From: Candidatus Binatia bacterium
GTDB taxonomy: Bacteria > Vulcanimicrobiota > Vulcanimicrobiia > Vulcanimicrobiales > Vulcanimicrobiaceae
Length of the DNA stretch: 64,000 bases
Assembly (NCBI GenBank): GCA_035544215.1
Contig: DATKHY010000003.1
Location: forward strand, 697,878 to 761,877
Reading direction: 5' to 3'
A program made the position numbers and the translations under genes. This document shows, piece by piece, positions 18,385 to 61,076 of the stretch (within the stretch, counting starts at the first letter, position 1; each line of letters begins with the position of its first letter). The notes beneath the pieces are model-generated. The model made no database searches, was not told the origin of the DNA, and worked only from the letters and a program-made list of their open reading frames with translations.

Positions 18385-19272
18385 CTATTGCCACATGCCC
18401 TTAAGGTCCGAGGCCGTGCAGGCGTTCGCGGTGCAGGCTACGCCTGTAATCGTCTCGATCGTGCGCAGAACCGAGTAGTGGTCGACGTTCTGATTGTACG
18501 AACCCGGTTTCACCGTCGGCCCGATCAGCAGGGTCGCGATCTGGTTCTTTCCGTTCTTGTCGGGTGAGGCTTCGTCCCAGGTGAGGATCAGCAGACCGCG
18601 ATGCGCGGTGTTGTACTTCAGGATCGCGGGGACGTTCTTCGCAAGCCACGTGTCACCGGTTTTCGTGCTGCAATCGTGCATGTCGTTGCAGAGGTTCGGC
18701 ACGACGATCGCCAGCGTCGGCGGCGATTTTGGGAAGCGCTGATACACGAGATTCGACGTCGCCGGTACGTTGGTGAAGTTCACCCACGGGTTGTGCTTGC
18801 GCGCGTATTCGCCCGCATAGCAGCCGGTGTATCCGTCGTGCGGCATCGACTCCGAATAGCCGTCGAAGCCTTTTCCGCCGGTCAGCAACTCGGCCCCGAC
18901 GTTCTCGGTTGAAAACGTGTGCGGACAGGAATCGTCGGTGATTCCTTGCGTCGAACCCGAGAAGAACGCGAGGTAGTTCGGTTGGCTCGGATGGCCGATG
19001 GCGTGGCTGTTTGTCATGAGCGCCGCCTCCGGCACGAGCGTTTTGTTAATGTACGGAGCCTGCGAGCTGCCGATGACCAGATCGTAATCGCGATTTTCCA
19101 TAATGATGACGACGACGTTATTCGCGTGCGGTTTGGCCACAGCGTCGGCTGCGACGATGTTGGCCGGAGCGCCGGCCGCGCTCGGTGCGCCGATGCTCAT
19201 GCCGGCACAACCGGCCAGCAGCGCCGCGGTAACGCCTTGCAGTTTTCGAAGGCAGATTGACAGTTCACTCAT
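18385..19272 (-). CDS. Phosphoesterase-family lipoprotein (acid phosphatase / PLC-type fold), short form
   Basis: ORF track gives 18385..19299; ATG 19272 has AAGGAG 7 nt upstream. Lipobox is ALLAGC. Motifs VVVIIMENRDYDLVIG...PYINK...NYLAFFSGSTQG are typical of the phosphoesterase family. Confidence 0.85.
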   Translation of the reverse strand: MSELSICLRKLQGVTAALLAGCAGMSIGAPSAAGAPANIVAADAVAKPHANNVVVIIMENRDYDLVIGSSQAPYINKTLVPEAALMTNSHAIGHPSQPNYLAFFSGSTQGITDDSCPHTFSTENVGAELLTGGKGFDGYSESMPHDGYTGCYAGEYARKHNPWVNFTNVPATSNLVYQRFPKSPPTLAIVVPNLCNDMHDCSTKTGDTWLAKNVPAILKYNTAHRGLLILTWDEASPDKNGKNQIATLLIGPTVKPGSYNQNVDHYSVLRTIETITGVACTANACTASDLKGMWQ

Positions 19273-19368
19273 ATGCGCACTCCTTTTTCCACCAGTCACC
19301 GTTTCGGAGTTTGCGGATTGGGGCCTTGGTTAAGGAGTGTTAGCAGCCCGGCGTGAAAACACGAAGGC

Positions 19369-20556: not shown

Positions 20557-21519
20557 ATGAGAATCTTGCTCAGCGCCGCAGCCATGATCTTGCTCGCAGG
20601 ATGCGGAGGCCTTCCACAGGCTCAGGTTGGAACGCAGCCGCCGGGCATCGCGCCGGGGGGCCCGGTAGGCGCAATAGGGAGCACGGACTTGCTCTACGCC
20701 GCGGGGCAGCACTTTGGCTACGTCTTTACCTACCCCGCGGGGAAGTTAGTAGGGTCCTTCCCGCTGCGCATCCACCGTCAGCAAGGCTATTCAAACGGCC
20801 TCTGCTCGGACTCGGGCGGCGACGTTTTTCTAACGGTCTTTTCCGCGAGCTTCGTTAAGATATTCGAATACGCGCACGGCGGCACCAAGCCGATCGCCGA
20901 GTTACGTGACCCACAGCCTACGCCGATCGGTTGCGCTAGCGATCCGACGAGCGGCAACCTTGCGGTAACGAACTCGTTTCCCACCGAGGGCCTAGAGAGC
21001 GTGGCCATCTACAAGGGCACGCAGGGCAAAGCGAAACTCTACTACTCGATCCCAGAAATGCACGTCTTAGCGTTTTGCGCTTACCACAATGCGGGCGATC
21101 TCTTCGTCGATGGCAAGAACAGAACGAACGGCCGGTTCGCGCTTGCCGAGCTTCCAAAAGGCAGCGGCACGTTTCAAAGCATTACCGTCAAGGGACTCGA
21201 TACCCGCAAGCCGGGCAACCTCCAGTGGATAGGCAACTACCTGACTGTCGCCGTTCCCACCGCCCACAGGATCTACACGCTGCAAGTCTCGGGCACGACC
21301 GGGACGATCGTCGGCACGACTGTGCTTCATCGATGGGATACGCGTACGACTGTGCAGTCGTGGATCGACGGCAACACCGTCATCGCTCCACGCGGCCTAA
21401 CGAATGAGACGATCGCATTCTGGAATTACCCTCAAGGCGGCAAGCCGGTCAAAACACTCCGTGGCTTTGCGGCCGGATACATTCACGGCGTGACGGTTAG
21501 CACAGGACAAGGCCGGTAA
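20557..21519 (+). CDS. P1-family beta-propeller-like lipoprotein (divergent copy)
   Basis: ORF track gives 20506..21519; ATG 20557 gives MRILLSAAAMILLAGCGG. P1 motifs: GLCSDSGGDVFL, FEYAHGGTKPI, GCASDPTSGNLAVTN, GDLFVDG, ELPKGSGTFQSI, LQWIGNYLTV, FWNYPQGGKPV. Confidence 0.8.
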   Translation: MRILLSAAAMILLAGCGGLPQAQVGTQPPGIAPGGPVGAIGSTDLLYAAGQHFGYVFTYPAGKLVGSFPLRIHRQQGYSNGLCSDSGGDVFLTVFSASFVKIFEYAHGGTKPIAELRDPQPTPIGCASDPTSGNLAVTNSFPTEGLESVAIYKGTQGKAKLYYSIPEMHVLAFCAYHNAGDLFVDGKNRTNGRFALAELPKGSGTFQSITVKGLDTRKPGNLQWIGNYLTVAVPTAHRIYTLQVSGTTGTIVGTTVLHRWDTRTTVQSWIDGNTVIAPRGLTNETIAFWNYPQGGKPVKTLRGFAAGYIHGVTVSTGQGR

Positions 21520-25321: not shown

Positions 25322-25331
25322 CGAGAAGTGC

Positions 25332-25359
25332 GCCGCCTCCCGAAATCGAAAGAGGCGGC
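25332..25359 (+). promoter_or_regulatory. 8-bp GC hairpin whose 3-prime arm contains the RBS of the phosphoesterase gene
   Basis: GCCGCCTC-ccgaaatcgaaa-GAGGCGGC ends 1 nt before ATG 25361. The AGAGG Shine-Dalgarno lies in the 3-prime arm. Confidence 0.3.
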
Positions 25360-25360
25360 T

Positions 25361-26767
25361 ATGCGTTCTCGGACCATCGCGTTTTTGATGCTCGCCGGCG
25401 CGGTGCTCGCCGCGTGCGGCGGCGGCTCGACCTCGGTCCCCGCTACACAGCAGGCGGCGAGCCGTCATGCGAGCGGGGCGAGCGGCCATGGGAGCTCATC
25501 GAGCTCGCCGATTCAGCACGTCGTGATCGTGGTCCAGGAAAACCGCACCTTCAACGATTTGTTCGCCACGTTTCCGGGCGGGGACGGAACGACGTACGGC
25601 AAGGTCGAGGCGAATCCCAACTGCAGCCCGCCGATCCAAGCGGGAACGATCCCGCTCCAAAAGGTGCCGCTCAGCGTCCCGAGTGACATGAATCATTCGT
25701 ATCCCGCGTATCAACAGGCGCGGGATAGCGGTAACATGGACGGCTTCGACCTGGTTCACTCCAAAGGCGGCGCCGGGCCGCCGGAGTGCACGTTTCCATA
25801 TCAGTATACCGACCCCGGGGCCATCGTACCCTACTGGGACATGGCCGAGCAGTACGCCTTGGCCGAGCACATGTACACGACCCAGGGCAGCGACAGCTTC
25901 ACCGCGCATCAGGACCTGATTCGCGGCGGCACGGAGGTCGAGCGGGGCAAGGCGCTGGTCGACCTCCCGACCTGCGGCATCTGCTGGTGGGGCTGCGACG
26001 CGCGGAACGGCACGACCACGCATCTCGTGACCAAGCTGGGCGCGTATCTGCGGCGTCCCGGTCCGTTTCCGTGTACCAGGCACTTCCAGATTCCGTATCC
26101 CACGCTGCGAAATCTGATGGATGCTAAACGCATCACGTGGAAATATTATCTGCCGGTGAAGACCGCGTCCTACGGCCAACTGATGAGCGCCTTCGACGTT
26201 ATCTGGCCCGTGCGCAACGGGCCGGAATGGAAGAATAACATCATCACCCCGCAGACGGCGATCTTCAACGATATCTCGAACGGGACGCTGCCGCAGGTGT
26301 CGTGGGTGATCCCGGACCAGAACGAGTCGGACCATCCCCACACCTCCCAGGACACCGGGCCTTCGTGGGTCGCGAGCATCGTGAACGCGATCGGCCAGAG
26401 CACCTACTGGCAGCACACGGCGATCATCATCGTGTGGGACGATTGGGGCGGATTCTACGACAACATGCCACCCCAGCAGCTGGACTACGGGGGCCTGGGC
26501 TTTCGCGTGCCGGCGATCATCGTGTCGCCCTACGCCAAGCCGGGATATATTTCGACGACGAACTACGAGTTCGGCAGCATCCTGCGGTACATCGAGGACA
26601 ACTGGAATCTCGGGCAGCTGGGCACGAGCGACTCGCGCGCCGCCAGCCTCATCGACTCCTTCAACTACTCGCAGCCGCCGATCACGTTCGTCAAGATTCC
26701 GTCGCAGTACTCGAAAGAGTACTTCATCCGCGCTAAGTACTCGGGGCCGCCCGACACGGACATGTAA
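25361..26767 (+). CDS. Phosphoesterase family lipoprotein (phospholipase C / AcpA-type)
   Basis: ORF track gives 25328..26767; ATG 25361 gives MRSRTIAFLMLAGAVLAACGGG. Motifs: IQHVVIVVQENRTFNDLFATFPG, SWVIPDQNESDHP, WDDWGGFYD, GFRVPAIIVSPY. Confidence 0.9.
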   Translation: MRSRTIAFLMLAGAVLAACGGGSTSVPATQQAASRHASGASGHGSSSSSPIQHVVIVVQENRTFNDLFATFPGGDGTTYGKVEANPNCSPPIQAGTIPLQKVPLSVPSDMNHSYPAYQQARDSGNMDGFDLVHSKGGAGPPECTFPYQYTDPGAIVPYWDMAEQYALAEHMYTTQGSDSFTAHQDLIRGGTEVERGKALVDLPTCGICWWGCDARNGTTTHLVTKLGAYLRRPGPFPCTRHFQIPYPTLRNLMDAKRITWKYYLPVKTASYGQLMSAFDVIWPVRNGPEWKNNIITPQTAIFNDISNGTLPQVSWVIPDQNESDHPHTSQDTGPSWVASIVNAIGQSTYWQHTAIIIVWDDWGGFYDNMPPQQLDYGGLGFRVPAIIVSPYAKPGYISTTNYEFGSILRYIEDNWNLGQLGTSDSRAASLIDSFNYSQPPITFVKIPSQYSKEYFIRAKYSGPPDTDM

Positions 26768-26777
26768 CGCGGCTGAA

Positions 26778-26806
26778 TTTGCGGAAGCTTGTATTGCTTC
26801 CGCAAA
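26778..26806 (+). terminator. 11-bp hairpin after the phosphoesterase gene (no T-run)
   Basis: TTTGCGGAAGC-ttgtatt-GCTTCCGCAAA, starting 11 nt after the stop. Confidence 0.35.
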
Positions 26807-26868
26807 GGCGCTCAAAGGCGAGTCGATGAACGTATTCGCCCCCAGGCTCTTTCAGGTGGAGTAACGTT

Positions 26869-27882
26869 GTGAATACGACCCCTTTAGTGAAATACGCCGG
26901 TGCTCTGTTTGCGCTTGGGATTTGCTCGGCATGCGTCAGCTCAGCGGGGGCACCGTCAACCGCTGCGCTCAACGTACGATACGTCGGTAAGACGCTCTGG
27001 CTGAACGGAAGGCCTGTAACTGCGGCGCGGGTGAATCTGAACCCCGCGCCCCGTTACGCGACGCTTTTCCCCGACCGGCGCGCCAGGTCGAAGTTTGAAT
27101 ACGTCATTAATTTCTACGGTACCTACGCCAGCATCTTCGACTACCCGAAGAGCACGAAGCAGATCGGTACGATCAATAACGTCGGCGGCCAAGGCTGCAC
27201 CAACGTCCTCTACGGCTATGGGAGGCAGACTTTTTGGATCGTGGCGGGCCAAAACCAGATCACGCAGTACCAGGTCCCCCAGACGCCGATCAAGACGCTC
27301 GATGCGCCCGCCGGGAGTATGCCGTCTAGCTGCGCCATGAATGCCGCCGGCGACCTTGCCGTCGGGATCTTGAACGGCACCGACGAGGGCGACGTCGTAA
27401 TCTATAACCACGCGAGCGGCTCGGGCAAGGTTTACACCACGCCGATGGACGAAGAATTCTTCGACGGCTACGACAACCAGGGGAATCTCTTTGCCGACGG
27501 CTTCACCGGCTTCCGCTCGGGCTTCGCGCTCACCGTACTCCCGAAGGGTGGCAACAAGTTCCTGTTGGTCACAACGAGCAACGCTGTGGGGTTCCCCGGC
27601 TCCGTGGAGTGGGACGGCACGTACCTCACCGTCTTCGATCAGAATGCAAACGCGGTCTATCAATACTCGGTCAGCGGAACGATTGCGACGTTGAAGGGCA
27701 CGGTATCCCTCAAGGGTTCCAGCGACTGCGGCCAGACCTGGATCGTCAAAGGCCTCATCTACTGCGGGGATGCGGGTAACAACGGCGGCGAGGTTTTCAA
27801 GTACCCAGCCGGCGGTTCACCGATCGCCGTCTTTACGGGCAACTTCGACACCCCACTCGGAATGGTGGCAGCAGCAAAATAA
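26869..27882 (+). CDS. P1-family lipoprotein, tandem copy B1
   Basis: 337 aa, GTG start preceded by GGAGTAACGTT. Signal ends in a CSAC motif. P1 motifs: IFDYPKSTKQIG, SSCAMNAAGDLAVG, YDNQGNLFADG, LPKGGNKF, VEWDGTYLTV, FKYPAGGSPIAVF. Confidence 0.85.
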   Translation: MNTTPLVKYAGALFALGICSACVSSAGAPSTAALNVRYVGKTLWLNGRPVTAARVNLNPAPRYATLFPDRRARSKFEYVINFYGTYASIFDYPKSTKQIGTINNVGGQGCTNVLYGYGRQTFWIVAGQNQITQYQVPQTPIKTLDAPAGSMPSSCAMNAAGDLAVGILNGTDEGDVVIYNHASGSGKVYTTPMDEEFFDGYDNQGNLFADGFTGFRSGFALTVLPKGGNKFLLVTTSNAVGFPGSVEWDGTYLTVFDQNANAVYQYSVSGTIATLKGTVSLKGSSDCGQTWIVKGLIYCGDAGNNGGEVFKYPAGGSPIAVFTGNFDTPLGMVAAAK

Positions 27883-27886
27883 CGCT

Positions 27887-28867
27887 GTGAATACGTCCGG
27901 TTTAGTAAAACGCGCCGGTGCTCCGTTTGCACTTGCTCTGTGTTCGGCGTGCGGCGCCCCGCAGCCAGCCGCTGCGCTCAATGCAGGATACGTCGCGGTA
28001 ACGGCCGCGCGGGTGAATCTGAATCCGCTGCCCCGTTACGCGACGACTGTTCCCGAGCTACGTGCGAAGGGGACCTTTGAGTACGTCATCAACTTCTATG
28101 GGACCTACGCCGGCATCTTCGACTACCCGAAGAGCACGAAGCAGATCGGTACGATCAATAACGTCGGGGGCCAGGGCTGCACGAACGTCCTCTACGGCTA
28201 TGGACGGAAGACCTTCTGGATCGTGGCGGGCGTCAACCAGATCACGGAGTACGAGATTCCCCAGAAGCCGATCAAGACGCTCGAGGCGCCCGCCGGCAGT
28301 ATGCCGTCAAGCTGCGCTATGAATTTCGCCGGAGACCTGGCCGTTGGGATCTTGAACTACACGGACGCAGGCGACGTCGTGATCTACAAACACGCGAGCG
28401 GCTCCGGCACCGTTTTCCCCACACCGCTGGCCAAAGAGTTCTTCGACGGCTACGACAACCAAGGAAATCTCTTTGCCGACGGCTCTAACCGCATCCGTTC
28501 GGGCGCCTTCGAGCTCGTTGAACTCCCGAAGGGCAGCAGTAAGTTCGAAACGATCGCAACGAGCAACGTTGTGGGGTTCCCTGGCTCCGTGCAGTGGGAC
28601 GGCAAATACCTCACGATCCTCTCTCAGAGCCAGAACTCGATCTATCGGTACACGGTCAGCGGAGCGAAGGCGGCGTTGAAGGACACCGTTATGCTGCGGG
28701 GTGCCGCCGATTGCGCGCAGACCTGGATCGTCAAGGGCCTCGTCTACTGTGCGGATGCGGGTAACAATATTGGCGCGGTTTACAAGTATCCGGCCGGCGG
28801 TTCACCGATTGCCGTCTTTACGGGCAATTTCGACAGCCCGCTCGGCGTGGTAGCAGCAGCGAAATAA
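27887..28867 (+). CDS. P1-family lipoprotein, tandem copy B2
   Basis: The in-frame GTG at 27887 (VNTSGLVKRAG...CSACGAP) lies 4 nt after the B1 stop. A 53-nt run is identical to B1 (28115-28167 vs 27133-27185). It lacks about 8 aa (RYVGKTLWLNGRP region) relative to B1/B3/B4. Confidence 0.85.
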   Translation: MNTSGLVKRAGAPFALALCSACGAPQPAAALNAGYVAVTAARVNLNPLPRYATTVPELRAKGTFEYVINFYGTYAGIFDYPKSTKQIGTINNVGGQGCTNVLYGYGRKTFWIVAGVNQITEYEIPQKPIKTLEAPAGSMPSSCAMNFAGDLAVGILNYTDAGDVVIYKHASGSGTVFPTPLAKEFFDGYDNQGNLFADGSNRIRSGAFELVELPKGSSKFETIATSNVVGFPGSVQWDGKYLTILSQSQNSIYRYTVSGAKAALKDTVMLRGAADCAQTWIVKGLVYCADAGNNIGAVYKYPAGGSPIAVFTGNFDSPLGVVAAAK

Positions 28868-28895
28868 TCTGGATTTATCGCTAAGGAGTAACGTT

Positions 28896-29918
28896 GTGAA
28901 TAGGACTGATCTATTGAAATACGCCGGTGCTCTAGTTGCACTAGCGCTATGTTCGGCATGCGGAGGCGCCCTTCGGCAGGCTCAGGGTGACATGGCCCCG
29001 TCAACCGCAGCGCTCAATGCACGGTACATTGGTAGAACGCTCTTCGTGAACGGAACGCCGGTAACGGCCGCGCGGGTGAATCTGAATCCGCTGCCCCGTT
29101 ACGCGACGCTTTTCCCTGACCTGCAAGCGAAGTCGAAGTTTGAGTATGTCATCAACTTCTACGGTACGTACGCCAGCATCTTCGACTACCCCAAGAGCAC
29201 GAAACAGATCGGTACGATCAATAACGTCGGCGGACAAGGGTGCACGAACGTCCTCTGGGGTTATGGGAAGAGGACCTTCTGGATCGTCGCGGGAGCTCAA
29301 CAGATCTCGTTGTACCTGGTCCCCCAGAAGCTTCTCCGGACGCTCTCCGTGCCCACCGGTATGCCATCGAGCTGTGCCATGAATTTCGCCGGCGACCTTG
29401 CGGTTGGGATCTTGAACTACACCAACGCGGGCGACGTCGTGATCTTCAAGCACGCGGGCGGCGCGGGCACCTATTATCCCACGCAGTTGACCAGAGAGTA
29501 CTTCGACGGCTACGACAACAAGGGGAATCTCTTCGCCGACGGTTTTAGGAGTAGTGGGTTCGGGCTCGTCGAGCTTCCGAAGGGCAGCAGCAAGTTCCAA
29601 CTGATCACAACGAGCAACAGAGTGGGGTTCCCCGGCTCCGTGCAGTGGGACGGCAAGTACCTCACCGTCCTCGATCAGTACGGGAACTCGATCTATCAAT
29701 ATACCGTCAGCGGAACGAGGGCGACGCTGAAGGGCACCGTGTCGCTCAAGGGTGCCGGTGATTGCGCGCAGACCTGGATCGTTAAGGGGCTCGTGTATTG
29801 CGGGGATGCAACTGACAACAATGGCTCGGTCTACAGGTACCCCGCCGGCGGTTCGCCGATTGCCGTCTTTACGGGCAATTTCGACACCCCGCTCGGCGTG
29901 GTGGCAGCGGAGAAATAA
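28896..29918 (+). CDS. P1-family lipoprotein, tandem copy B3
   Basis: 340 aa, GTG preceded by AAGGAGTAACGTT. The architecture matches B1, with an extra GGALRQAQGDM segment after the CSAC motif. Confidence 0.85.
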   Translation: MNRTDLLKYAGALVALALCSACGGALRQAQGDMAPSTAALNARYIGRTLFVNGTPVTAARVNLNPLPRYATLFPDLQAKSKFEYVINFYGTYASIFDYPKSTKQIGTINNVGGQGCTNVLWGYGKRTFWIVAGAQQISLYLVPQKLLRTLSVPTGMPSSCAMNFAGDLAVGILNYTNAGDVVIFKHAGGAGTYYPTQLTREYFDGYDNKGNLFADGFRSSGFGLVELPKGSSKFQLITTSNRVGFPGSVQWDGKYLTVLDQYGNSIYQYTVSGTRATLKGTVSLKGAGDCAQTWIVKGLVYCGDATDNNGSVYRYPAGGSPIAVFTGNFDTPLGVVAAEK

Positions 29919-29922
29919 CGGC

Positions 29923-31083
29923 CTATTGCTCCAGTTCTTGCAGCGTGTTCGTCTTCGTATCGGTATAGAATAGGGCCGTATCGCTATCGCTCGTGCCGGT
30001 CGCAACGAGTCCGAAGATGTGAGCAGTCGGGCTCGTGTCGATTGTCTTTGTGTCAAGAATCTTTCCCGTCGGTGTTAGCTCCACCAGCGTGTTTCCGCCT
30101 TTCGTATTCGCAACGATGAGGTTTCCGTTCGGTAGGAGAGCAGAAGCTACGGGTGCATCCAGCGGAGAGCCACTATAGACGAGCTTCGCGCACGTGTGCT
30201 TTGGGTGAAGGCATCTGAATCTCTTACCACCGGGTTGCACGACGATCTCGTCCTTCTCAAGTAGTTGGCTGGCGGTCGAAACGGCGACGATCGTGTTGTC
30301 GACCCCGTCCACGATATAAAGCGTGTCGTTGCAAAGAGTACCGATTCTAGTGCTATTGTATTGAATTCCGGATGGGCCCAAGACACTCCATCCGGAGCCC
30401 TTATTGACGCCGAAACCGGTTATCACTTGGGTCACTTTCGCGTGGCCGGAGCGACTGACGGGGATGAACGCCAATTTAATAATTGAGCCGGTCTTGGAAT
30501 CTGCAATGTAGATGTCCTCAGGCGCGTAGGGAAGACCGCAGAATGCATCGGCGTCGTCGAACGGAACCTGGATGGGAGAGCCATAAGTTTTCTTCAGCGC
30601 GCCGGTTGGATCGAACTTCGAAACGCGACCGCTGCTCAGCCCCGCGCCGTATACGTAATTTGTCGCGGTGGTGGCGTCACTGTCGCAGCCCTCAATCTTA
30701 CGACTTTGGGCAAAAGTCCTTAGCGTGGAGTGCGGGCGTGGATCGAGTACTTCGATCGTCGTACCTTTCCCGGCGGTGCCCGCAGCGTCGTCGAAGTTGC
30801 AAACGACCAGCTGCCCTTTCTTGAGCCCAAAGGTCGATCGGGCGACCGAAATCGCGCGGGGGCCCATGTCGCCGTTCTTCGGATCGACCGTCGAGCCGAT
30901 TCTCACGTCCTTAGTAAGTTTTTTCAGAATCGACGTGTTGTCGTCTGGAATGATGGAACTCGCGCCTAGCGCGGAGACTTGCGACGTGTCGGAGACCGGA
31001 ACTGTTGTGTTTCCTCCACACGCCGAAGTTGCAAACAGCGCTCCCGCGGTTAGGATAAGTGCGCGATTGTTAAAAGTTGGCAT
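29923..31083 (-). CDS. NHL/beta-propeller-like lipoprotein
   Basis: Trimmed to ATG 31083 (MPTFNNRALILTAGALFATSACGG; AGGAG upstream). NHL-like blades are present, e.g. ALLPNGNLIVANTKGGNTLVELTPTG. It interrupts the B1-B4 array on the opposite strand. Confidence 0.75.
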   Translation of the reverse strand: MPTFNNRALILTAGALFATSACGGNTTVPVSDTSQVSALGASSIIPDDNTSILKKLTKDVRIGSTVDPKNGDMGPRAISVARSTFGLKKGQLVVCNFDDAAGTAGKGTTIEVLDPRPHSTLRTFAQSRKIEGCDSDATTATNYVYGAGLSSGRVSKFDPTGALKKTYGSPIQVPFDDADAFCGLPYAPEDIYIADSKTGSIIKLAFIPVSRSGHAKVTQVITGFGVNKGSGWSVLGPSGIQYNSTRIGTLCNDTLYIVDGVDNTIVAVSTASQLLEKDEIVVQPGGKRFRCLHPKHTCAKLVYSGSPLDAPVASALLPNGNLIVANTKGGNTLVELTPTGKILDTKTIDTSPTAHIFGLVATGTSDSDTALFYTDTKTNTLQELEQ

Positions 31084-31251
31084 CCCAAAAAGCTCGCTCC
31101 TAAGACAGTGCTGACGATGCGGGCTTCGAAGTGCCTCTTTCGTCGCCTGCAAGAGCGAGCGACCGCACGCTCTAGTCGCCCAGGCATCAGCGAACACTAC
31201 CCAAAAGCAATCCCAAAGCACGGAAAAGGTCTTCTTCCAGGGAGTAACGCC

Positions 31252-32262
31252 ATGAATACGCCCGGTTTAGTAAAATGCGCCGGCGCTCTGCTTGCACTCG
31301 CGATGTGCTCGGCGTGCTGGAGCTCGGCAGGCGCGCCGTCAGCCGCTGCGCTCAGCGCACGATACGTCGGTAGGACGCTCTTCGTGAATGGAAAGCCCGT
31401 AACCGCAGCGCGCGTGAATCTGAGCCCGTTGCGCCGTTCCGCGACAACTGTTCCTGACCGGGATTTGGACTCGAGGACCTTTGAGTACGTTATCAACGAT
31501 TACGGTACCTACGCCGGCATCTTCAAATATCCGAACAGCGATAAGGAAATCGGTAAGATCACTAACGTCGGTGGCCAAGGCTGCACGAACGTCCTCTACG
31601 GCTACGGGAAGAAGATTTTCTGGATCGTCGCGGCCTTTAACCAGATCACGGAATACACCATCCTCAAGAAGCCGCTCAAGACGCTCTCCGATTCCGTCGG
31701 TATGCCATCCAGCTGCGCCATGAATACCAGCGGCGACCTTGCCGTCGGGATCTTGAATGGCAGCGGCGCGGGCGACGTCGTGATCTACAAGAACGCGAGC
31801 GGCTCGGGCACCGTTTACACCACGCCCTTGGCCAGCGAGTTCTTCGACGGCTACGACAGCCAGGGGAATCTCTTCGCCGACGGCTTTTCCAGTGCCAGTG
31901 GCTTCAGGCTCGTCGAGCTCCCGAAGGGCGGCACTAAATTCCAAACGATCGCCACAAGCAACAGCGTGCAGTTCCCAGGCTCCGTGCAGTGGGACGGCAA
32001 GTACGTCACAGTCCTCGATCAGCTATCCAACGCGATCTACCAGTACACCATCAGCGGAACGAACGCAACGTTGCAGGGCACGGTATCGTTCCAGGGCTCC
32101 AGCGACTGCGCGCAGAGCTGGAACGTTAAGAACCTCGTCTACTGCGGGGATGCGGGGACCAACGACGGCGAGGTTTTCAAGTACCCCGCCGGCGGTTCAC
32201 CCGTTGCGACCTTTACCGGCGGTTTCGACCTACCGCTCGGCGTGGTGGCAGTAGAGAGATAA
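31252..32262 (+). CDS. P1-family lipoprotein, tandem copy B4
   Basis: ORF track gives 31108..32262; ATG 31252 gives MNTPGLVKCAGALLALAMCSAC. Same motif set as B1-B3 (SSCAMNTSGDLAVG, YDSQGNLFADG, ELPKGGTKF, VQWDGKYVTV, FKYPAGGSPVATF). Confidence 0.85.
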   Translation: MNTPGLVKCAGALLALAMCSACWSSAGAPSAAALSARYVGRTLFVNGKPVTAARVNLSPLRRSATTVPDRDLDSRTFEYVINDYGTYAGIFKYPNSDKEIGKITNVGGQGCTNVLYGYGKKIFWIVAAFNQITEYTILKKPLKTLSDSVGMPSSCAMNTSGDLAVGILNGSGAGDVVIYKNASGSGTVYTTPLASEFFDGYDSQGNLFADGFSSASGFRLVELPKGGTKFQTIATSNSVQFPGSVQWDGKYVTVLDQLSNAIYQYTISGTNATLQGTVSFQGSSDCAQSWNVKNLVYCGDAGTNDGEVFKYPAGGSPVATFTGGFDLPLGVVAVER

Positions 32263-32325: not shown

Positions 32326-33273
32326 CTACCAACTGATAACGACGAGGCCGTTTGTGGTCGCGTTTTTCCAGCCTTGCCAACTCTGGAAGCGCGTGGCACT
32401 TGGCTCGATGTAGGACGAACCTCCGCCGCCGCCACCACCGCCGTAGCCGTATGTGTAAAAACCCCCAGTGCCGCCGCCGCCCCCACCGCCGCCGTAATAA
32501 CCACCGCCGCCGCCGCCACCAGTGCCACCGACGGGCTTGCAAAACTTTCCCTTCTGACAGCCTTTCCCGCCGCCGCCACCGCGGCCGACCGAGCCGTTAG
32601 CCCCCGGCCGCGGGTAAGTTGAGCTTCCGGCGATACCACCTTGTCCGCCACTCTCTTGCGTGCCACCCCCGCCTCCCACACCCCACTCGCCGGGGCAGCA
32701 TCGCGGATCTCCGGCAGCGCCTATGCTGCCCCCGCCCTTTCCGCCCGCGCCCCAGTAGCTTCCAAATGCTTCGCCACCTTGGCCGCCGCCGCCGCCGGCA
32801 ACGACAATGCGATCCGTCAACCGATCGCCGCCTTCGCGAATATCGGACGCGCCCCCACCACCAAATCCGTCGTTATATCCGTGGCGGTTCATGCCGGCGT
32901 GCGCGCCGCCGTTGAATCCGCCCGCGGCCCCGGACGGCTGCCCACCGACGAAGACTGCCAGCGTCTCGTCGGGCGTAACCGGGATAATCGCAAAGACGCG
33001 ACCGCCGGTGGCGAAGACCGTACTGCTGCGATCGCCATGGCCTCCCGCGGCGCCGCGAACGACGACTTCAATCTTCGTCACGGAAACCGGTACTCTAAAA
33101 TCCTGCTCCTTGCCAGTGTAGTTAAACGTGCGGTTACGCGGATACGTAGCCGGGCTAATCGCACGGCTTTCCGGCATTGCGCCTGGAGCAGCGATAGGTG
33201 GTTGCGACCCGCAGCCTGCGAGCAATGCAGCTGCCGCGCCGATTGTAAGCGCGTTGCGACCCAGTGTCCCCAT
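32326..33273 (-). CDS. Glycine-rich lipoprotein (Gly_rich / ALK-type glycine-rich domain-like)
   Basis: Trimmed to ATG 33273: MGTLGRNALTIGAAAALLAGCGS. Then FNYTGKEQDFRVPVSVTKIEVVVRGAAGG...GGRVFAIIPVTPDETLAVFVGG...GGGGASDIREGGDRLTDRIVVAGGGGG, followed by poly-Gly and the tail SSYIEPSATRFQSWQGWKNATTNGLVVISW. Confidence 0.75.
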   Translation of the reverse strand: MGTLGRNALTIGAAAALLAGCGSQPPIAAPGAMPESRAISPATYPRNRTFNYTGKEQDFRVPVSVTKIEVVVRGAAGGHGDRSSTVFATGGRVFAIIPVTPDETLAVFVGGQPSGAAGGFNGGAHAGMNRHGYNDGFGGGGASDIREGGDRLTDRIVVAGGGGGQGGEAFGSYWGAGGKGGGSIGAAGDPRCCPGEWGVGGGGGTQESGGQGGIAGSSTYPRPGANGSVGRGGGGGKGCQKGKFCKPVGGTGGGGGGGYYGGGGGGGGTGGFYTYGYGGGGGGGGSSYIEPSATRFQSWQGWKNATTNGLVVISW

Positions 33274-33313
33274 AAAGCGATGCCTCCCGAAGCAGAACGG
33301 ACCAGCGGCTAGG

Positions 33314-33340
33314 AACGTTCGACGGCGCCGCATTCGTTCC
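33314..33340 (-). promoter_or_regulatory. ECF-like promoter candidate GGAAC-N18-CGTT in a conserved leader
   Basis: In gene orientation: GGAACGAATGCGGCGCCGTCGAACGTTCC. It lies about 40 nt upstream of ATG 33273, within a leader that is about 80 percent identical (by eye) to the one at 55785-55853. Confidence 0.3.
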
Positions 33341-35995: not shown

Positions 35996-36976
35996 CTAAT
36001 GCTTCGACGCGAGACTCGCCGTGACACCCTGGGCACCCTGCTCGTTGTATAGGCTAAACACCGCACCACCGCCCTCGGGGTAGTCGTAGAAGAGCACTCC
36101 ATACTGAGAATTCGTTAGGACGAGCTGATTCGCTCGTTTGACCGATTTTGGGCCGCCGATCCGGCCGAGCCAAAACGCTCCGCCACTCTGCCCGGACCTT
36201 TCCGTGAGCATGTAGCCTTCTTCGATGCCTCGCGTTCCGTGGATGGTATACCATTCGAAAATGCTAGGATACTGGTAATACGGCACGTCGAACTCCACGA
36301 CGAAGTATTCACCGTCCCAGCGAACGTAGCCGGGGCGCGTCCATTGGGAGCTGTGTGGCAGCGTTACACTTTTGAAAGCGCTCCCCCCATGCCGCAGGAT
36401 CGCGAAGCTGAGCATCGACGACTCCTCTCCGCTGATGAGAAGATTTCCGCTCGCGTCGTAACTGCCCGAACTGTACGCTGAGAAGCCCTTTTCCGCATAA
36501 ATCTTCGGCCTCACTTTGCCCTTCACGTACACTGCGACGTCTCCGGGGCCGGACTCGTTAATGACAGCAAGGTCGCCGGTAACCGGGTCAACGGAGCAAT
36601 CGATCGGATTCGGGTTCGGATCGATAAACGTTTTGACCGGCGCCGATCCGCCGTGCGCGAACTCCAGAATGTCGGCCGCCCCGTTATTCGTTACGTAGAC
36701 GTTGCCCTGGGGATCGGTGCACGATCCGGCGGCGTGCGAAAAATAGTTGAGCGTACCAACCTGCGTGTTGCTTCCGTAATCGTAGACGTCCACCGCGCTG
36801 TACGCCGACACGTAGAGGAGGTTTTTGCCCACGTTCGGCGTCAGGGACGACGCGAGCGCAACGCTGGAGTGCGGAACCGACGGCACGGACTGCGACGGAG
36901 CCTGCAAGCCTGCGCAGCCGGCCACAATACCGCAGGCGCAGGCAGCCAGTGCAAAGCGTAGGAGAGTCCCGTACAT
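35996..36976 (-). CDS. P1-family lipoprotein, copy A1
   Basis: Lipobox GIVAGCAG. Motifs: GSCTDPQGNVYVT, LEFAHGGSAPV, CSVDPVTGDLAVIN, YDASGNLLISG, VRWDGEYFVV, FYDYPEGGGAV. Confidence 0.8.
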   Translation of the reverse strand: MYGTLLRFALAACACGIVAGCAGLQAPSQSVPSVPHSSVALASSLTPNVGKNLLYVSAYSAVDVYDYGSNTQVGTLNYFSHAAGSCTDPQGNVYVTNNGAADILEFAHGGSAPVKTFIDPNPNPIDCSVDPVTGDLAVINESGPGDVAVYVKGKVRPKIYAEKGFSAYSSGSYDASGNLLISGEESSMLSFAILRHGGSAFKSVTLPHSSQWTRPGYVRWDGEYFVVEFDVPYYQYPSIFEWYTIHGTRGIEEGYMLTERSGQSGGAFWLGRIGGPKSVKRANQLVLTNSQYGVLFYDYPEGGGAVFSLYNEQGAQGVTASLASKH

Positions 36977-36990
36977 CGTCGTGCGATTCC

Positions 36991-37998
36991 TTAGTGCGCC
37001 ACGCTGATGGCGACGCCCTGGAAGTTGCTGCCGTCAGGGGCTTGAATCGCCTTGAAGGCCTTACCGCCGGCCGGATATGGCCAGAAGTACAGCTGGCGTG
37101 TCGGTCCGCCGTTGCCGGCGTCGGGTCCCACGATGAACTTCGCTTGTATTGCGAACTCGACGTCGAGGTACGTTCCCTCATCGTGGTAAGTGCGCAGGCT
37201 GGTGGTACCGACGATCCGCGCTCCGGATCCCGAGACGGTCACGCGGTCCACGCGCACCGGCCCCTTCGCACCTCCCAGAACCGTTACGGCTAGATCTCGC
37301 GCGTTCCACTGCAAGCTACCTGGAGCAATGTTCTTGTTGAAGTAGACGTGTCTCAACGCGCTACCGTTTCGTGGCAGCTCGTTGATGAAGTTCGCGTTGC
37401 CGTCGGCGAAGATGTTTCCCTTGCCGTCATACGTACAGTAGTAGTAGTGCGTTATGCTCGAGTCATAGTAGTCCTGAGGTGATCCTTGCGCGTGTTGGTA
37501 AACGGCGATGTCGCCTTGGCCGCCCACTGCGAAATCCTCATAGTTGGCGATCGCCAAATTTCCCGTCGATGGATCGACCGAACAGCCCGACGGCACGCCG
37601 GAGCCGCCGAGACCGTTGATCCCCCGAGTTGATCCGTGCGAGTATTCGTCGTAGAATGCCTGACCGTTCGTAATCCAGCCTACAACCCATACGTTACCCT
37701 GCGTGTCGGAGCAGAGCCCCTCATATGTTTCCTCCGTGTCGGGCTCGAGAAACCCCACCTGTTTGCCCTGGGGATAGGTATAAATGTAGACGCCTCCTTT
37801 GCCCCACACGCCCTGATCGGACACATAAATGAGGTCCTGGCTCGCCGCACCGGGGAGTATCCAGGAATACCCCGGCACGCGATGATGTTCCGCGACGGAA
37901 CTGACGAATGACGTAGAGAACGGCGCGGCGGGCTGCGGATTTCCGCACGCGGCCAGCGATGCTCCCGCCGAGAGGGCGAGCCAAGCGCGTCTATTCAT
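36991..37998 (-). CDS. P1-family lipoprotein, copy A2
   Basis: Lipobox SLAACG. Motifs: GLCSDTQGNVWVV, GCSVDPSTGNLAIAN, YDGKGNIFADG, ELPRNGSAL, LQWNARDLAV, FWPYPAGGKAF. The start overlaps the stop of A3 (ATGAATAG). Confidence 0.8.
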   Translation of the reverse strand: MNRRAWLALSAGASLAACGNPQPAAPFSTSFVSSVAEHHRVPGYSWILPGAASQDLIYVSDQGVWGKGGVYIYTYPQGKQVGFLEPDTEETYEGLCSDTQGNVWVVGWITNGQAFYDEYSHGSTRGINGLGGSGVPSGCSVDPSTGNLAIANYEDFAVGGQGDIAVYQHAQGSPQDYYDSSITHYYYCTYDGKGNIFADGNANFINELPRNGSALRHVYFNKNIAPGSLQWNARDLAVTVLGGAKGPVRVDRVTVSGSGARIVGTTSLRTYHDEGTYLDVEFAIQAKFIVGPDAGNGGPTRQLYFWPYPAGGKAFKAIQAPDGSNFQGVAISVAH

Positions 37999-38944
37999 GG
38001 ATCCTTCCGAGGCTTACGGTCACCGCAACGGGTTGCGAGATGCCCTGCGAGATCTCCGCGATGCCGTCGCCACCGGCGGGGTAGTTCCAGTATTCGACTA
38101 ATCCCTCGTATCCACCGACGACCTGCGTACCCTGCCGCTTCGAACTATTGCTGTAGATCCAGAACGGCCCGGTCTGGCCGCAACAGACTTGCAGGTTGGT
38201 GACGCCGATATAGTATCCCAGCCCTTTGATAACGCTCACGCGGTAGAGGTTCTCGTCGTCAAGGACGTAATATCGGCCGTCCCACTGTATTCCGTTGATC
38301 TCTTCCCACGGAGACCCGTACGGTCCCGGCACCGTAACGTTGAGCAGCCGGTTGCCGCCCTTGGGCAGCCACGCGAAGCTCGAATAGCGGCTGCCGAACT
38401 GACCGTTCGACGCGAGGAGGTTGCCATCGTTATCGTACGCACAGGCTTGGAACTGCGGGATCGTCTTAATCGTGAAGAATTTCGGCGATCCGCTGGCGTG
38501 GGCATATACGGCGATGTTCCCTTGACTGGAGCTGCCCGCTTCGTTCGCCACCGCAAGCGACCCGGTCGTTTCATCAACGGAGCAGGAGTAGGGAGCATAA
38601 GGCGAATCGTCGATAGTCCGTAGCGGCTTCTTTCCCGCGTGCGCATATTCGACGATTTTCTTCGCGCCGTAATCTGCGATGTAGACGTTTGCGGACTTGT
38701 CGACGCACTCGCCCATCGGTTGAGTGAAGCCCGTCAGTTCGGCAACCAGCGTCTTCTGCCAGTACGTGTATACCGTTACCTCGCCGTTTCCGTCGGAGAT
38801 ATACAGAAGGTCGAGTTTCTTTACGACGAGGTCAGGGCGGGCGCCCTCGATCTTTAGGGGTGTGGCGTTCGCCCCGGCATATTGCGCTGCGGAGCTGCAG
38901 CCGGCTGCGGCGAGCACCCCGCACAGGACGATCGATCTGATCAT
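37991..38944 (-). CDS. P1-family lipoprotein, copy A3
   Basis: Lipobox LAAAGCSS. Motifs: GECVDKSANVYIAD, VEYAHAGKKPL, CSVDETTGSLAVAN, YDNDGNLLASNG, LPKGGNRL, IQWDGRYYVL, YWNYPAGGDG. ATGA overlap with A4. Confidence 0.8.
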   Translation of the reverse strand: MIRSIVLCGVLAAAGCSSAAQYAGANATPLKIEGARPDLVVKKLDLLYISDGNGEVTVYTYWQKTLVAELTGFTQPMGECVDKSANVYIADYGAKKIVEYAHAGKKPLRTIDDSPYAPYSCSVDETTGSLAVANEAGSSSQGNIAVYAHASGSPKFFTIKTIPQFQACAYDNDGNLLASNGQFGSRYSSFAWLPKGGNRLLNVTVPGPYGSPWEEINGIQWDGRYYVLDDENLYRVSVIKGLGYYIGVTNLQVCCGQTGPFWIYSNSSKRQGTQVVGGYEGLVEYWNYPAGGDGIAEISQGISQPVAVTVSLGRIHE

Positions 38945-39936
38945 GGGGCTCCACCTCCCGTTACGACGCTGACGGCTGCACCAAAAGGTGTGGAATCATT
39001 ATGAGCATTGTGGGCGGTAGGTTTCCCCCCGCCCGGATACGGCCACACGTACGTCGCGCTTGGGACCGACCCGCAGAAATCGGAGTCCGAGCCCACCACG
39101 TGTCCCTGCCAAATGACACCTTGAATGAGATCACACAGTTGACCGCCGGTAGAATTCTCCAGCGCTATCTTCCCCTTGATTGCGGCTCCGGTCTTTGAAA
39201 CCGACAAGCGATAGATACAGCTGACGGTCTGATTGCCGCAGTTCTGGTCGCCGATCGCGAGATAGCTGGAACTCCACTGCACTAGCCCCGGGTAGTAAAT
39301 TCTTCCCCCTGAGATGGCGATGCTTTTCGCCTGCACAGCGTTGACCGGCAGCTCCGACAGCATGAACTTACCGTTGGCGTTGCGGCCGTCGAAGAACAAA
39401 TTCCCCGCGCTGTCGTACCAGCCGAAGTTATAATAGAACTGTTTGGGATTGCTGTAGATGTTCGGGACACCGGCGGCGTGGTGGTAGATGAGCACGGCAC
39501 CGGGGAGGCTTCCGGTACCCAACAAGTTCATGACGGCGAGGTTTCCAGTCTTGGGATTCCATGCGCATCCGCCGGGGTATCCGGAGGTATCGCTGAGGCG
39601 TCGCCCGATCGAACCCGAGTGTTCGACTTCGAAGATGGTCTGCGCCGTGCCGTCGGTTACCCAGACGTTGCCTTTATTGTCGGAACACTCTCCCTGTGGC
39701 TGCGTGAATCCCGTGACAATTTCGATCAGCTTCAGTGTGGGAAGCGTGTAGATGTAGACCTCCGAGGTGCCGGGATCCGAAACGAAGACCCACGCCTTAC
39801 TGGCCTTAAAGTTTGGATTTTCAACTGAACTCGAAGCCGCAAGAGTCGCGGGCTGCGACTGCAGACCGCTGCAGCCGGCAATGGTGAACATCGAAAGCGC
39901 GGCCAGCCTGTAGCACCGCGTAAAGGCAATTTTCAT
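38941..39936 (-). CDS. P1-family lipoprotein, copy A4
   Basis: Lipobox FTIAGCSG. Motifs: GECSDNKGNVWVTD, GCAWNPKTGNLAVMN, YDSAGNLFFDG, ELPVNAVQAKSI, VQWSSSYLAI, VWPYPGGGKP. It lies 4 nt downstream of the Gly-rich gene. Confidence 0.8.
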   Translation of the reverse strand: MKIAFTRCYRLAALSMFTIAGCSGLQSQPATLAASSSVENPNFKASKAWVFVSDPGTSEVYIYTLPTLKLIEIVTGFTQPQGECSDNKGNVWVTDGTAQTIFEVEHSGSIGRRLSDTSGYPGGCAWNPKTGNLAVMNLLGTGSLPGAVLIYHHAAGVPNIYSNPKQFYYNFGWYDSAGNLFFDGRNANGKFMLSELPVNAVQAKSIAISGGRIYYPGLVQWSSSYLAIGDQNCGNQTVSCIYRLSVSKTGAAIKGKIALENSTGGQLCDLIQGVIWQGHVVGSDSDFCGSVPSATYVWPYPGGGKPTAHNAHNDSTPFGAAVSVVTGGGAP

Positions 39937-39940
39937 CTCG

Positions 39941-40846
39941 TCACCAGCTTATGACGACGAGGCCGTTAGTAGTAGCGTTCTTCCAGCCTTGCCACATCAC
40001 GACTTTCGTTGCACGCGACTCGACGTAGGATGAACCTCCGCCACCGCCGCCACCACCGCCGATCGCGCTCGTGCCTACACCTCCCGCGCCGCCTCCACCG
40101 CCGCCGTAGTATCCGCCGCCGCCGCCGCCGCCGGAACCACCGTAACTACCGGCGCCGCCAGCCCCCCCGACCGCAAGACTCCCGGCCGCGCCGGGGTCGC
40201 CGTTGCCCAGCGAGCCCGAGCCGCTGCCTCCGCCGCTTCCGCCTTCCTGTTGCGTACCGCCGCCGCCGCCGCCACCACCATAATACTGAGAGCCGTCCCC
40301 ACCGACGCCGCCCGTACCGCCACTCATGCCGCCGCCCTTCCCACCGACACCGCCCGGGAAATTTTTTAACCCGCCCCCGACGCCGCCACCGCCGCCCGAT
40401 ATTATGATCCTATCGACCAGTCTTCGGCCTCGCTCGCGGACGTCGCTGGCGCCTCCACCGCCGAAACCCGAAAGTGTACCCTCGTCGCCGCCTATAGCGC
40501 CCCCGTTGAAACCGGCTGTGCGCGCCGCCCCCATGCCACCAACGTAGACATACAGCAACTCTCCCGCCTTCACTGGCACGATTGCATAGACACGACCTCC
40601 GCGCGCTACGTCGGCGGAGCCACCCCCGGCCGCGCCGCGCGCCACGACCGTGATGCTGGTCACTCCCTGCGGAACTTTGAAATTCTGTACCTTGTCGATG
40701 AAATGAAAGGTATGCGATTGCGTGACGGCAGGGTGGTCGTTTCCGAGTAGCGCCGGGACTGTTCCGGCACTCTTGCCGCATCCGGCAGCCAGCGTGGCAA
40801 CGGCAACGCCGAGAGCGCAGCGAGCGAACGAACGAAACTCCATCAT
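39941..40846 (-). CDS. Glycine-rich lipoprotein (Gly_rich-like), paralog of 32326..33273
   Basis: Trimmed to ATG 40846 (AGGAG upstream): MMEFRSFARCALGVAVATLAAGCG. Then FHFIDKVQNFKVPQGVTSITVVARGAAGG...GGASDVRERGRRLVDRIIISGGGGG, followed by poly-Gly and the tail SSYVESRATKVVMWQGWKNATTNGLVVISW. Confidence 0.75.
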   Translation of the reverse strand: MMEFRSFARCALGVAVATLAAGCGKSAGTVPALLGNDHPAVTQSHTFHFIDKVQNFKVPQGVTSITVVARGAAGGGSADVARGGRVYAIVPVKAGELLYVYVGGMGAARTAGFNGGAIGGDEGTLSGFGGGGASDVRERGRRLVDRIIISGGGGGVGGGLKNFPGGVGGKGGGMSGGTGGVGGDGSQYYGGGGGGGGTQQEGGSGGGSGSGSLGNGDPGAAGSLAVGGAGGAGSYGGSGGGGGGGYYGGGGGGAGGVGTSAIGGGGGGGGGSSYVESRATKVVMWQGWKNATTNGLVVISW

Positions 40847-40955
40847 GCCTGACTCCTGACCGGAGAACGACGGGCCAAGATGACGTTCGGCGCCGGCGCC
40901 GCATCCCATCCCGTCGGGCCGCGCATTGCGTCGCTGCTGGACTAAGCGCTACGCA

Positions 40956-41942
40956 CTAGTGAGTGACCGCGATTCCGTTTGAGAAAACGCCGGTCTGCTC
41001 ATATTCGGTCGCTTTCGTACTCGCCGTGAGCGGATAGGGCATCGAGTACACCTCTCCCCCCTCCGTAGAAACCCACAGGGTCGTCTCGCTGTTCTGCATT
41101 GCCAACTCGGCGAGATTACCGTACGAGGAGAGCGTTATCGTCAGCGACGGCGTCGTCGCTCCCGGCGGAAACACCTTGATATCGTCCGACGCAGACTCAA
41201 CGACGACGATGTTCCCGGCACTATCGACGACTAACCCTTGAGGCTGATCGATCGTCATACCCAGAAGCCGCTTGTTCGTAAGGCCCGGTCCGAACTCCGC
41301 AATCGAGCTATTAATTCCCGTCCGGCGGTATGCGACATAAAGATTGCCGCTCGCGTCAAAGGCCATTCCGTCTTCTTCTGAGCCTAATCGCACGCGCCTG
41401 ATCGGTACGTTCGTGCCTGCGTTGTACTCGACGACAAACCCTTTATTGTGGCTCTCGGCTTCGCGATCCCCAACGAAGACGTGCCCCGCTGAATCGGCCA
41501 CCGCGTATAACGGTTCGTGCAGTCTCTTCGAGAACGTCATCGACGGGCTCGAGGAGCCATACGGGTAGACGGTGACGCTGCGGTGAAACGCGTTCGCGAC
41601 GTAGAGCGTATTGTTGGCGTCGAGGCTCAATCCCCACGGGCCGTGGACGCCGTTGGAGATCGAGCCTATCTGTTTCTGATTCGGCCCCGTGAGCGGAAAG
41701 AGGTCGATGGCGCCGTAGTAGTCGTTGCCGATATACAACAGGGGCTGACTGGTGGCGAAGCGCGGGAGCGGCCTCGAGGCGCGGCGCGAGACTGCGTCGC
41801 CCGGCAAGGGCGTTGAAGCCGCATTCTCTTGCAGCTGCGGGAACGCCGTTTGCCCGCTTTGCCGCGGCCCTCCGCAACCGGCGAACGTGATCCCCATCGC
41901 GATGGTAAATATGAGGCTCAGGCGTTTAGAGATTCCAGCCAT
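40956..41942 (-). CDS. NHL-repeat beta-propeller lipoprotein
   Basis: Trimmed to ATG 41942 (MAGISKRLSLIFTIAMGITFAGCGG). Blades: GPWGLSLDANNTLYVANAFHRSVTVYPYG, LYAVADSAGHVFVGD, GMAFDASGNLYVAY, PQGLVVDSAGNIVVVES...IKVFPPG. Confidence 0.8.
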   Translation of the reverse strand: MAGISKRLSLIFTIAMGITFAGCGGPRQSGQTAFPQLQENAASTPLPGDAVSRRASRPLPRFATSQPLLYIGNDYYGAIDLFPLTGPNQKQIGSISNGVHGPWGLSLDANNTLYVANAFHRSVTVYPYGSSSPSMTFSKRLHEPLYAVADSAGHVFVGDREAESHNKGFVVEYNAGTNVPIRRVRLGSEEDGMAFDASGNLYVAYRRTGINSSIAEFGPGLTNKRLLGMTIDQPQGLVVDSAGNIVVVESASDDIKVFPPGATTPSLTITLSSYGNLAELAMQNSETTLWVSTEGGEVYSMPYPLTASTKATEYEQTGVFSNGIAVTH

Positions 41943-42063
41943 TGTCTTTCCCCCGCTAGTGAATTGTGATGCCGTTGGGTCCAGAGCGCCGTGCGAATCG
42001 AGGTTCTCATGCAACGGTTTCCTCTCATATGCGATGCTCCACACTATAACGGAGTGGAGAGAT

Positions 42064-61048: not shown

Positions 61049-61076
61049 GGCTGCAGCCTGCGCCGAAGGCCGGAGC

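Follow-up and report, generated by a model that had tools for sequence, protein, structure and literature searches.

A nine-copy array of predicted lipid-anchored β-propeller genes in a metagenome-assembled genome

What does a dense cluster of repeated lipoprotein genes encode, how old are its copies and what might they do? The question is raised by a 64,000-nucleotide (nt) stretch of contig DATKHY010000003.1 (assembly GCA_035544215.1, positions 697,878–761,877), termed the window, which contains four B-type copies (B1–B4), five divergent copies (A0–A4) and an opposite-strand partner gene. On balance, the evidence leans towards an old array of paralogues encoding lipid-anchored, non-catalytic propellers that would act as binding modules, with specificity conferred by their top-face loops. 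A search of the window with a profile built from all nine copies gave exactly nine strong matches (357–410 bits), all within 19 kb and at the positions reported in a first-pass annotation of this DNA. The genes are as follows, with protein lengths in amino acids (aa).

20557–21519, plus strand: A0, 320-aa divergent member, LLAGC lipobox
26869–27882, plus strand: B1, predicted 337-aa lipoprotein propeller, GTG start (open reading frame (ORF) translation; 406 bits against the family profile)
27887–28867, plus strand: B2, predicted 326-aa lipoprotein propeller, GTG start, N-terminal region shorter by about 9 aa
28896–29918, plus strand: B3, predicted 340-aa lipoprotein propeller, 'LRQAQGD' linker variant, used for the AlphaFold model and the Foldseek search
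29923–31083, minus strand: partner gene, predicted lipoprotein of 386 aa with weak SGL/NHL likeness, convergent with B3 and divergent from B4
31252–32262, plus strand: B4, predicted 336-aa lipoprotein propeller, ATG start, of a B sub-lineage other than that of B1–B3
35996–36976, minus strand: A1, 326-aa divergent member, closing the minus-strand run
36991–37998, minus strand: A2, 335-aa divergent member
37991–38944, minus strand: A3, 317-aa divergent member, overlapping A4 by 4 nt and A2 by 8 nt
38941–39936, minus strand: A4, 331-aa divergent member

The ORF list and its translations bear out the annotated layout of four intact B genes and an opposite-strand 386-aa gene, with signal peptides that end in CSAC in all of B1–B4 and intergenic gaps of 4 nt (B1/B2) and 28 nt (B2/B3). 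The partner gene ends 4 nt past B3 and starts 168 nt ahead of B4, and A4-A3-A2-A1 form a tight minus-strand run held together by the 4-nt and 8-nt overlaps. The B copies had been described as near-identical, which does not hold: B–B identity is 69–77% in protein and 80–84% in DNA, and A0–A4 share 28–38% protein identity with the B copies and among themselves. The internal deletion reported for B2 is present, with a length of about 9 rather than about 8 aa, and the insertion following the B3 lipobox is the extra 'LRQAQGD' linker. The start context thought to be common to all four genes is found in the other B copies, but B2 lacks the GGAG, reading AAAATAACGCTGTG, because it starts 4 nt past the B1 stop codon.

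There is practically no chance that the array is an artefact of assembly. Two further public records, an ENA k141 contig and a JGI contig, match positions 27991–48944 of the window with 100% identity, and comparable arrays occur in many independent assemblies, some of them on contigs of 2–3 Mb. A collapsed or expanded repeat is unlikely because the B copies differ by 16–20% at the DNA level.

Fold and lipid anchoring

The family had gone unrecognised in the first-pass annotation, and indeed no model in Pfam or NCBIfam covers any of the nine copies; the Pfam NHL model (PF01436) reaches E 0.03–0.12, below the cut-off, in only two of the nine. No description of this propeller lipoprotein family was found in the literature. 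The earlier guess of an NHL-related β-propeller is supported, because the nine-copy profile picks up the NHL domain of PknD (E 1e-6) and Pizza proteins (E down to 5e-13, for Pizza7H), and because the Foldseek results agree. The AlphaFold model of B3 is all-β, residues 82–338 forming about 24 strands, with a predicted local distance difference test score (pLDDT) of 80–92 over residues 130–330; residues 1–80 are of low confidence. Foldseek comparison of this model with the PDB placed six-bladed propellers on top (E about 1e-9, template modelling (TM) score 0.5–0.6, 11–17% identity), the matches including the YWTD domains of LRP2 and LRP6, nidogen, Pizza6, the PknD sensor, Keap1 and Brat. In our own assignment, the modelled chain would form six closed blades, the final blade being made up of the C-terminal strand and the first three N-terminal strands.

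A pair of cysteines, C116 and C160 in B3, is conserved in 99–100% of the family and lies on the inner strands of adjacent blades. A second pair, C290 and C302, is present in the B copies. The first pair is predicted to form a disulfide between blades 1 and 2, and the second is likewise a candidate disulfide, which would fit an extracytoplasmic location. The features that define the family are the lipobox, the six-bladed NHL-type propeller, the cysteine staple and a 'YP.GG' closure motif. From the N-terminus, each protein consists of the signal peptide with its closing lipobox cysteine, a variable linker and the propeller.

The PknD NHL sensor of Mycobacterium tuberculosis (PDB 1RWI) and the Pizza propellers, designed proteins derived from it, are, like the family, six-bladed and located outside the cytoplasm, and the likeness consists of the profile match across blades 1–2, the fold and a repeated 'G.A.D..G.VYV'-type blade motif. 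In contrast to both, the blades of the family are less regular and carry the invariant cysteine pair and the 'YP.GG' closure motif, and the family has expanded into arrays; it is also lipid-anchored, whereas the PknD sensor is joined to its kinase by a transmembrane helix. We know of no catalytic activity in either the PknD NHL sensor or the Pizza propellers. The YWTD propellers of LRP2, LRP6 and nidogen, which are extracellular binding modules working via the top face, gave the best Foldseek matches and share six blades with B3 at a TM score of about 0.6. Unlike these eukaryotic proteins, to which it is 11–14% identical, B3 has no YWTD motif and no flanking epidermal growth factor (EGF) domains; the nine copies contain neither the motif nor a Pfam match to the YWTD/LDL-receptor class B family, the likeness being structural only.

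A signal peptide with a positively charged n-region and a hydrophobic core, followed by a lipobox cysteine, was identified in all nine copies. Related genes were compared across 78 loci, found by a search seeded with peptide patterns of the four B copies and not with the nine-copy alignment. The N-terminus 'MNTTGLVKYAGALVALAICSAC' is kept in 104 B-type genes of other genomes. Among 108 B-type proteins, Cys22 is at least 97% conserved and position 19 varies (C, L, V, I or G), which identifies the lipobox as L-x-[SA]-A-C. A lipobox-like motif also occurs in 121 of 133 diverse family representatives, in which the lipobox cysteine column is 98% conserved. Conservation of this cysteine in the B-type homologues and in the family representatives upholds the earlier lipoprotein claim and supports all nine copies as lipoproteins, the predicted substrates of signal peptidase II. 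The NCBI annotation of B2, B3 and B4 gives proteins of 284, 290 and 292 aa (P0039, P0054 and P0097) without signal peptides, so re-annotation is needed; the longer lipoprotein starts are favoured because their N-terminus is conserved in more than 100 homologues.

Age of the duplications and distribution of the family

Synonymous divergence (dS) is 0.44–0.52 for the pairs among B1–B4, with a ratio of non-synonymous to synonymous divergence (dN/dS) of 0.30–0.45. The nearest relative of B1 is a foreign copy (79% identity, against 74% for the neighbouring copies), and the nearest relatives of B4 are foreign copies too. Of 62 B-type copies that have a paralogue at the same locus, 11% have that paralogue as their closest relative, and best identities average 72% within a locus as against 83% at another locus. 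The dS values, the foreign relatives of B1 and B4 and the 11% figure contradict the recent duplication that had been proposed for this array. B1 groups with B2, B3 and two foreign copies, L001_9416 and L006_9968, and this grouping with single copies from two other genomes points to a lineage-specific but old triplication as the source of B1–B3. B4 is a separate, older B lineage; genes placed as B4 is, after the partner, in loci L002 and L004 have the upstream context of B4.

Recent duplication had been coupled with gene conversion and, as one possibility, an antigenic role, the array being read as a surface protein homogenised by conversion and undergoing antigenic-type variation. Local signals in its favour are exact runs of 55 nt in B1/B2 (at 27131/28113, where a run of 53 nt had been reported) and 50 nt in B2/B3, together with dips in synonymous divergence such as a proportion of synonymous differences (pS) of 0.07 over codons 181–210 of B3/B4. 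In a GENECONV-style permutation test, p was 0.011 for B1/B2 and 0.029 for B2/B3, nominal values that are uncorrected for six pairs and are lost on correction; the remaining four B pairs were not significant. Short, old conversion tracts among the B copies are possible, but recent homogenisation of the array is not supported, since every pair retains a dS of 0.44–0.52 and same-locus paralogues are seldom closest relatives. An antigenic role finds no support in a free-living soil lineage in which all copies are complete and each has a start codon, a ribosome-binding site and a signal peptide of its own, and these expression signals, like the dS values, set the copies apart from vls- or pilS-like silent cassettes. 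Recent duplication with homogenisation and antigenic-type variation is thus largely refuted, and we give it very little credence.

The 'LRQAQGD' linker variant (B3 residues 23–33, about 28962–28994 in the window) occurs in 18 of the 108 B-type proteins. Its carriers are otherwise differing B-type copies from many genomes, a scatter that counts towards recent conversion. The linker may reflect a long-standing dimorphism or a short module passed between copies.

A word-indexed search for the family returned at least 2189 matches, and an exhaustive search of cluster representatives returned 8268 clusters at 50% identity (E up to 1e-3), or 2822 at E up to 1e-30. Two or more family copies lie within 10 kb of each other in 57 of the 78 loci. 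The named sources of the family are mostly Candidatus Cybelea and other Eremiobacterota, and the B-type loci from species-representative genomes are all assigned to Eremiobacteraeota, Vulcanimicrobiota, Cybelea or Tumulicola, save two. Genes neighbouring the array are 86–93% identical to their counterparts in a Cybelea metagenome-assembled genome (MAG), the aldo-keto reductase reaching up to 93%. The Binatia label of the source MAG is probably wrong, because the closest relatives of the genes checked belong to Cybelea or other Eremiobacterota. The Eremiobacterota are abundant in acidic, nutrient-poor soils, and the one member in culture is bounded by an outer membrane containing lipopolysaccharide (PMC9758169). 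The family, with its thousands of diverged members, multi-copy loci and lack of a curated model, is probably an important part of how Eremiobacterota cells interact with their environment.

Conserved surfaces, the partner gene and the proposed role

The residues conserved throughout the family are glycines, prolines, aromatics, the cysteine pair and the turn motifs 'D..GN[LV]' and '[YL]..GG..P', and no one polar constellation stands out among them. Four polar residues that are 90–93% conserved in the rest of the family, D118, E139, H142 and D163, are replaced in the B copies. Across the 108 B-type proteins, variability peaks in the loops assigned to the top face (1.47 bits, as against 0.82 bits for those of the bottom face; p = 9e-4), and the inner strands are the least variable part of the propeller. 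The earlier suggestion of a diversifying binding surface fits these data, the top-face loops being the most variable part and the conserved residues forming repeated structural motifs. Conservation of the turn motifs, replacement of polar residues in B copies under purifying selection and the variable top-face loops together favour non-catalytic binding modules.

The partner gene is more conserved than the B genes, since its homologues are 66–87% identical in the fetched loci and the best 120 of 1044 homologues are 75–97% identical. It adjoins a B-type gene in about 40 of the 78 loci, usually in divergent orientation, and L001, L014, L017, L047, L052 and L053 likewise show the order B, partner, B. 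The description of the array as split by this gene was therefore misleading, because the order is a conserved arrangement. The partner has no detectable relation to the B/A family in profile–profile comparison (1.9% probability), its profile matches nothing among PDB sequences and its AlphaFold model gives no usable fold (mean pLDDT 33).

Adjacent A copies are joined in several other assemblies. P0125 and P0127 each carry one lipobox followed by an A4 orthologue as the N-terminal half and an A3 orthologue as the C-terminal half, which matches the gene order in the window, and the same fusion is present in the N-terminally truncated P0001 and P0002. These fusions suggest that adjacent paralogues work together. 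Natural fusions of two and three propellers of the family exist, also among P0121–P0132.

From these observations we infer a binding role, co-assembly and a cellular location for the propellers. They would be tethered to a membrane of the diderm cell, at its surface or within the periplasm, where the variable top-face loops may set ligand or partner specificity. Adjacent paralogues and the conserved partner may act jointly in one assembly. The array itself consists of old paralogues held by purifying selection. The closest functional analogue is XusB of Bacteroides (DUF4374), a surface lipoprotein propeller that catches siderophores for a TonB-dependent transporter and whose homologues bind different siderophores through entirely different loop residues (PMC13142918). 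Lipid anchoring of a propeller and the binding of ligands by differing loop residues are shared with the mechanism proposed here, whereas XusB is seven-bladed, belongs to an unrelated family and is encoded next to its TonB-dependent transporter; no such transporter was seen, either in the scanned proteins of the window or in the recurrent neighbours. The proposed role holds no mechanistic surprise, expanded hypothetical exported repeat families being common in MAGs. The family definition, the age of the array, the partner gene and the fusions provide targets for family models, re-annotation and interaction or ligand tests.

Several points weigh against this reading. The loop variability is only suggestive, because the outer strands and loops of any propeller vary more than the inner strands, and the blade and face assignment was derived from the strand list of the B3 model and the NHL motif. 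Counts of co-occurrence are biased towards B-type neighbourhoods because the search for loci was seeded with B copies. The near-complete confinement of the family to Eremiobacterota in the present data is based on MAG labels: the two exceptional B-type loci come from a MAG labelled Acidiferrales, one homologue is labelled Dormibacteraeota, and NCBI lists the source MAG itself (locus tags VMT95_055xx) as 'Candidatus Binatia bacterium'. Finally, the partner narrowly passes the Pfam SGL cut-off (28.9 bits against 26.3 bits), and one three-domain homologue of the family carries the IMG label 'sugar lactone lactonase YvrE'.

The last two points also speak for the main rival explanation, that the propellers are enzymes (SGL-, strictosidine-synthase- or Vgb-like lactonases, lyases or hydrolases) with paralogues differing in substrate. 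The region is moreover rich in secreted hydrolases, with five PF04185 proteins, an S8 peptidase and a propeller of the Vgb lyase family, and D118, E139, H142, D163, D207 and D252 are conserved in most of the family. SGL enzymes (SMP-30/gluconolactonase/LRE, PF08450) do share the fold class. However, none of the nine copies is matched by SGL, lactonase or Vgb models, the SGL model giving no match at E up to 1, and the Glu/Asn/Asn/Asp set that binds metal in the central channel of SGL-type enzymes is not conserved in the family. The conserved acidic and histidine residues fall in motifs repeated from blade to blade, as would be expected of structural turns; four of these residues are substituted in the B copies, which are nonetheless under purifying selection; and the nearest relatives in sequence are the non-enzymatic PknD NHL sensor and Pizza derivatives. 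An enzymatic role is accordingly considered unlikely.

Less likely than enzymes are envelope scaffolds or assembly factors resembling BamB or TolB, with each paralogue serving one envelope machine. Lipid-anchored propellers in a diderm lineage, the conserved synteny with other lipoproteins and the fusions would all suit such factors, but proteins of the BamB or TolB kind are normally single-copy, whereas the present family comprises the 8268 clusters and is multi-copy at its loci, and its members were not seen beside Bam, Tol or Lpt genes. This explanation is therefore regarded as improbable.

Genes and sequence elements around the array

The following other features of the window surround or accompany the array.

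9724–11874, plus strand: exported propeller of another family, sortilin/BNR-like
18385–19299: PF04185 gene (phospholipase C/acid phosphatase family)
25328–26767, plus strand: PF04185 phosphoesterase lipoprotein, 101 nt upstream of B1 (Pfam E 5e-50)
26795–26868, plus strand: leader ahead of B1 with the conserved motif AAAGGC.C-N5-GCGAG-N2-GATGAA...ATTCGCC, then the ribosome-binding site GGAGTAACG
32326–33333, minus strand: glycine-rich lipoprotein (Pfam ALK/LTK glycine-rich domain PF12810, E 7e-8)
39941–40909, minus strand: glycine-rich lipoprotein, upstream of A4 on the same strand
40956–42044, minus strand: NHL-repeat lipoprotein in the same strand run as A4 (NHL repeat E 2.5e-9)
42064–43383, minus strand: GloVer-repeat 'choice-of-anchor' lipoprotein, 439 aa, upstream of A4 (TIGR03803, E 5e-54)
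44714–45634, minus strand: extracytoplasmic function (ECF)-type sigma factor gene, its product extended at the C terminus; the minus-strand lipoprotein run ends 1.3 kb away
46646–47626, plus strand: exported propeller of another family, SBBP/strictosidine-synthase-like
49917–51851: PF04185 gene
54705–55784, minus strand: exported propeller of another family, virginiamycin B lyase (Vgb) family (E 6e-34)
60957–62498: PF04185 gene
62515–63912: PF04185 gene

The five PF04185 genes constitute a second expanded exported family of the same region, and the two inspected, those of 25328–26767 and 18385–19299, have lipoprotein-type or signal-like N-termini. Tandem arrays of periplasmic lipoproteins are typical of Tli immunity genes beside type VI Tle effectors, and the propellers might by analogy be immunity proteins against secreted phosphoesterase or phospholipase toxins. 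The PF04185 gene immediately upstream of B1 fits this idea, as does the occurrence of other PF04185 members no more than 10 kb from B-type genes at 18 of the 78 loci. The adjacency may nonetheless be due to chance because both families are multi-copy, and the PF04185 protein upstream of B1 is itself a lipoprotein with a Sec-type signal. Furthermore, the tightest and most conserved neighbour of the B genes is the SGL-like partner, not a phosphoesterase, and type VI, Rhs and PAAR genes were not recognised among the window proteins scanned, no dedicated search for them having been made. Immunity is thus less likely than an enzymatic function and is judged highly improbable.

GloVer-type lipoproteins lie near propeller genes in 29 of the 78 loci, often in several copies. 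A broader proposal would combine the propeller family, the SGL-like partner and the GloVer-repeat and glycine-rich lipoproteins into a phylum-specific modular envelope system, serving in substrate capture or as a surface layer. Such a system would consist of strings of lipid-anchored propellers, at times fused, and would be unlike known TonB-linked or S-layer systems. It is an improbable proposal; if true, it would explain much of the Eremiobacterota secretome that has so far defied explanation.

The two glycine-rich lipoproteins (32326–33333 and 39941–40909) are 41% identical over their N-terminal halves and have a common C-terminal end (WQGWKNATTNGLVVISW). Genes of this kind were found in 5 of the 78 related loci. 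The PF12810 match is unusual for a bacterium.

The leader found ahead of B1 also precedes B-type genes in L002, L004, L007, L013, L017, L019, L022, L025 and L066. Its consensus reads AAAGGCAC-N5-(T/C)GCGAG-N2-GATGAATCTGATTCGCC, followed by a variable GC-rich, hairpin-like stretch and then GCGATCGTGTCTACTCAAAAGGAGTAACGTAATG; in this window, its 5′ half occurs at B1 only. The TACTC of the leader can pair with the Shine–Dalgarno sequence GAGTA. A structured RNA leader is unsupported, as the prediction gave no more than a 5-bp hairpin pairing the Shine–Dalgarno sequence, with no covariation, and Rfam has no match anywhere in the window. A sigma-54 promoter was likewise rejected for the conserved motif 'GGCAC-N5-TGC' ahead of B-type genes, the spacing of which is, as we read it, one base short of the canonical GG-N10-GC. 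Promoter-like and terminator-like sites are no commoner in the window than in shuffled sequence, and PADLOC gave no credible match to a defence system.

The genes at 40956–42044 and 46646–47626 are two far weaker NHL-type relatives that were also matched by the nine-copy profile. Together with the other exported propellers, they make secreted β-propeller proteins unusually plentiful across the window.

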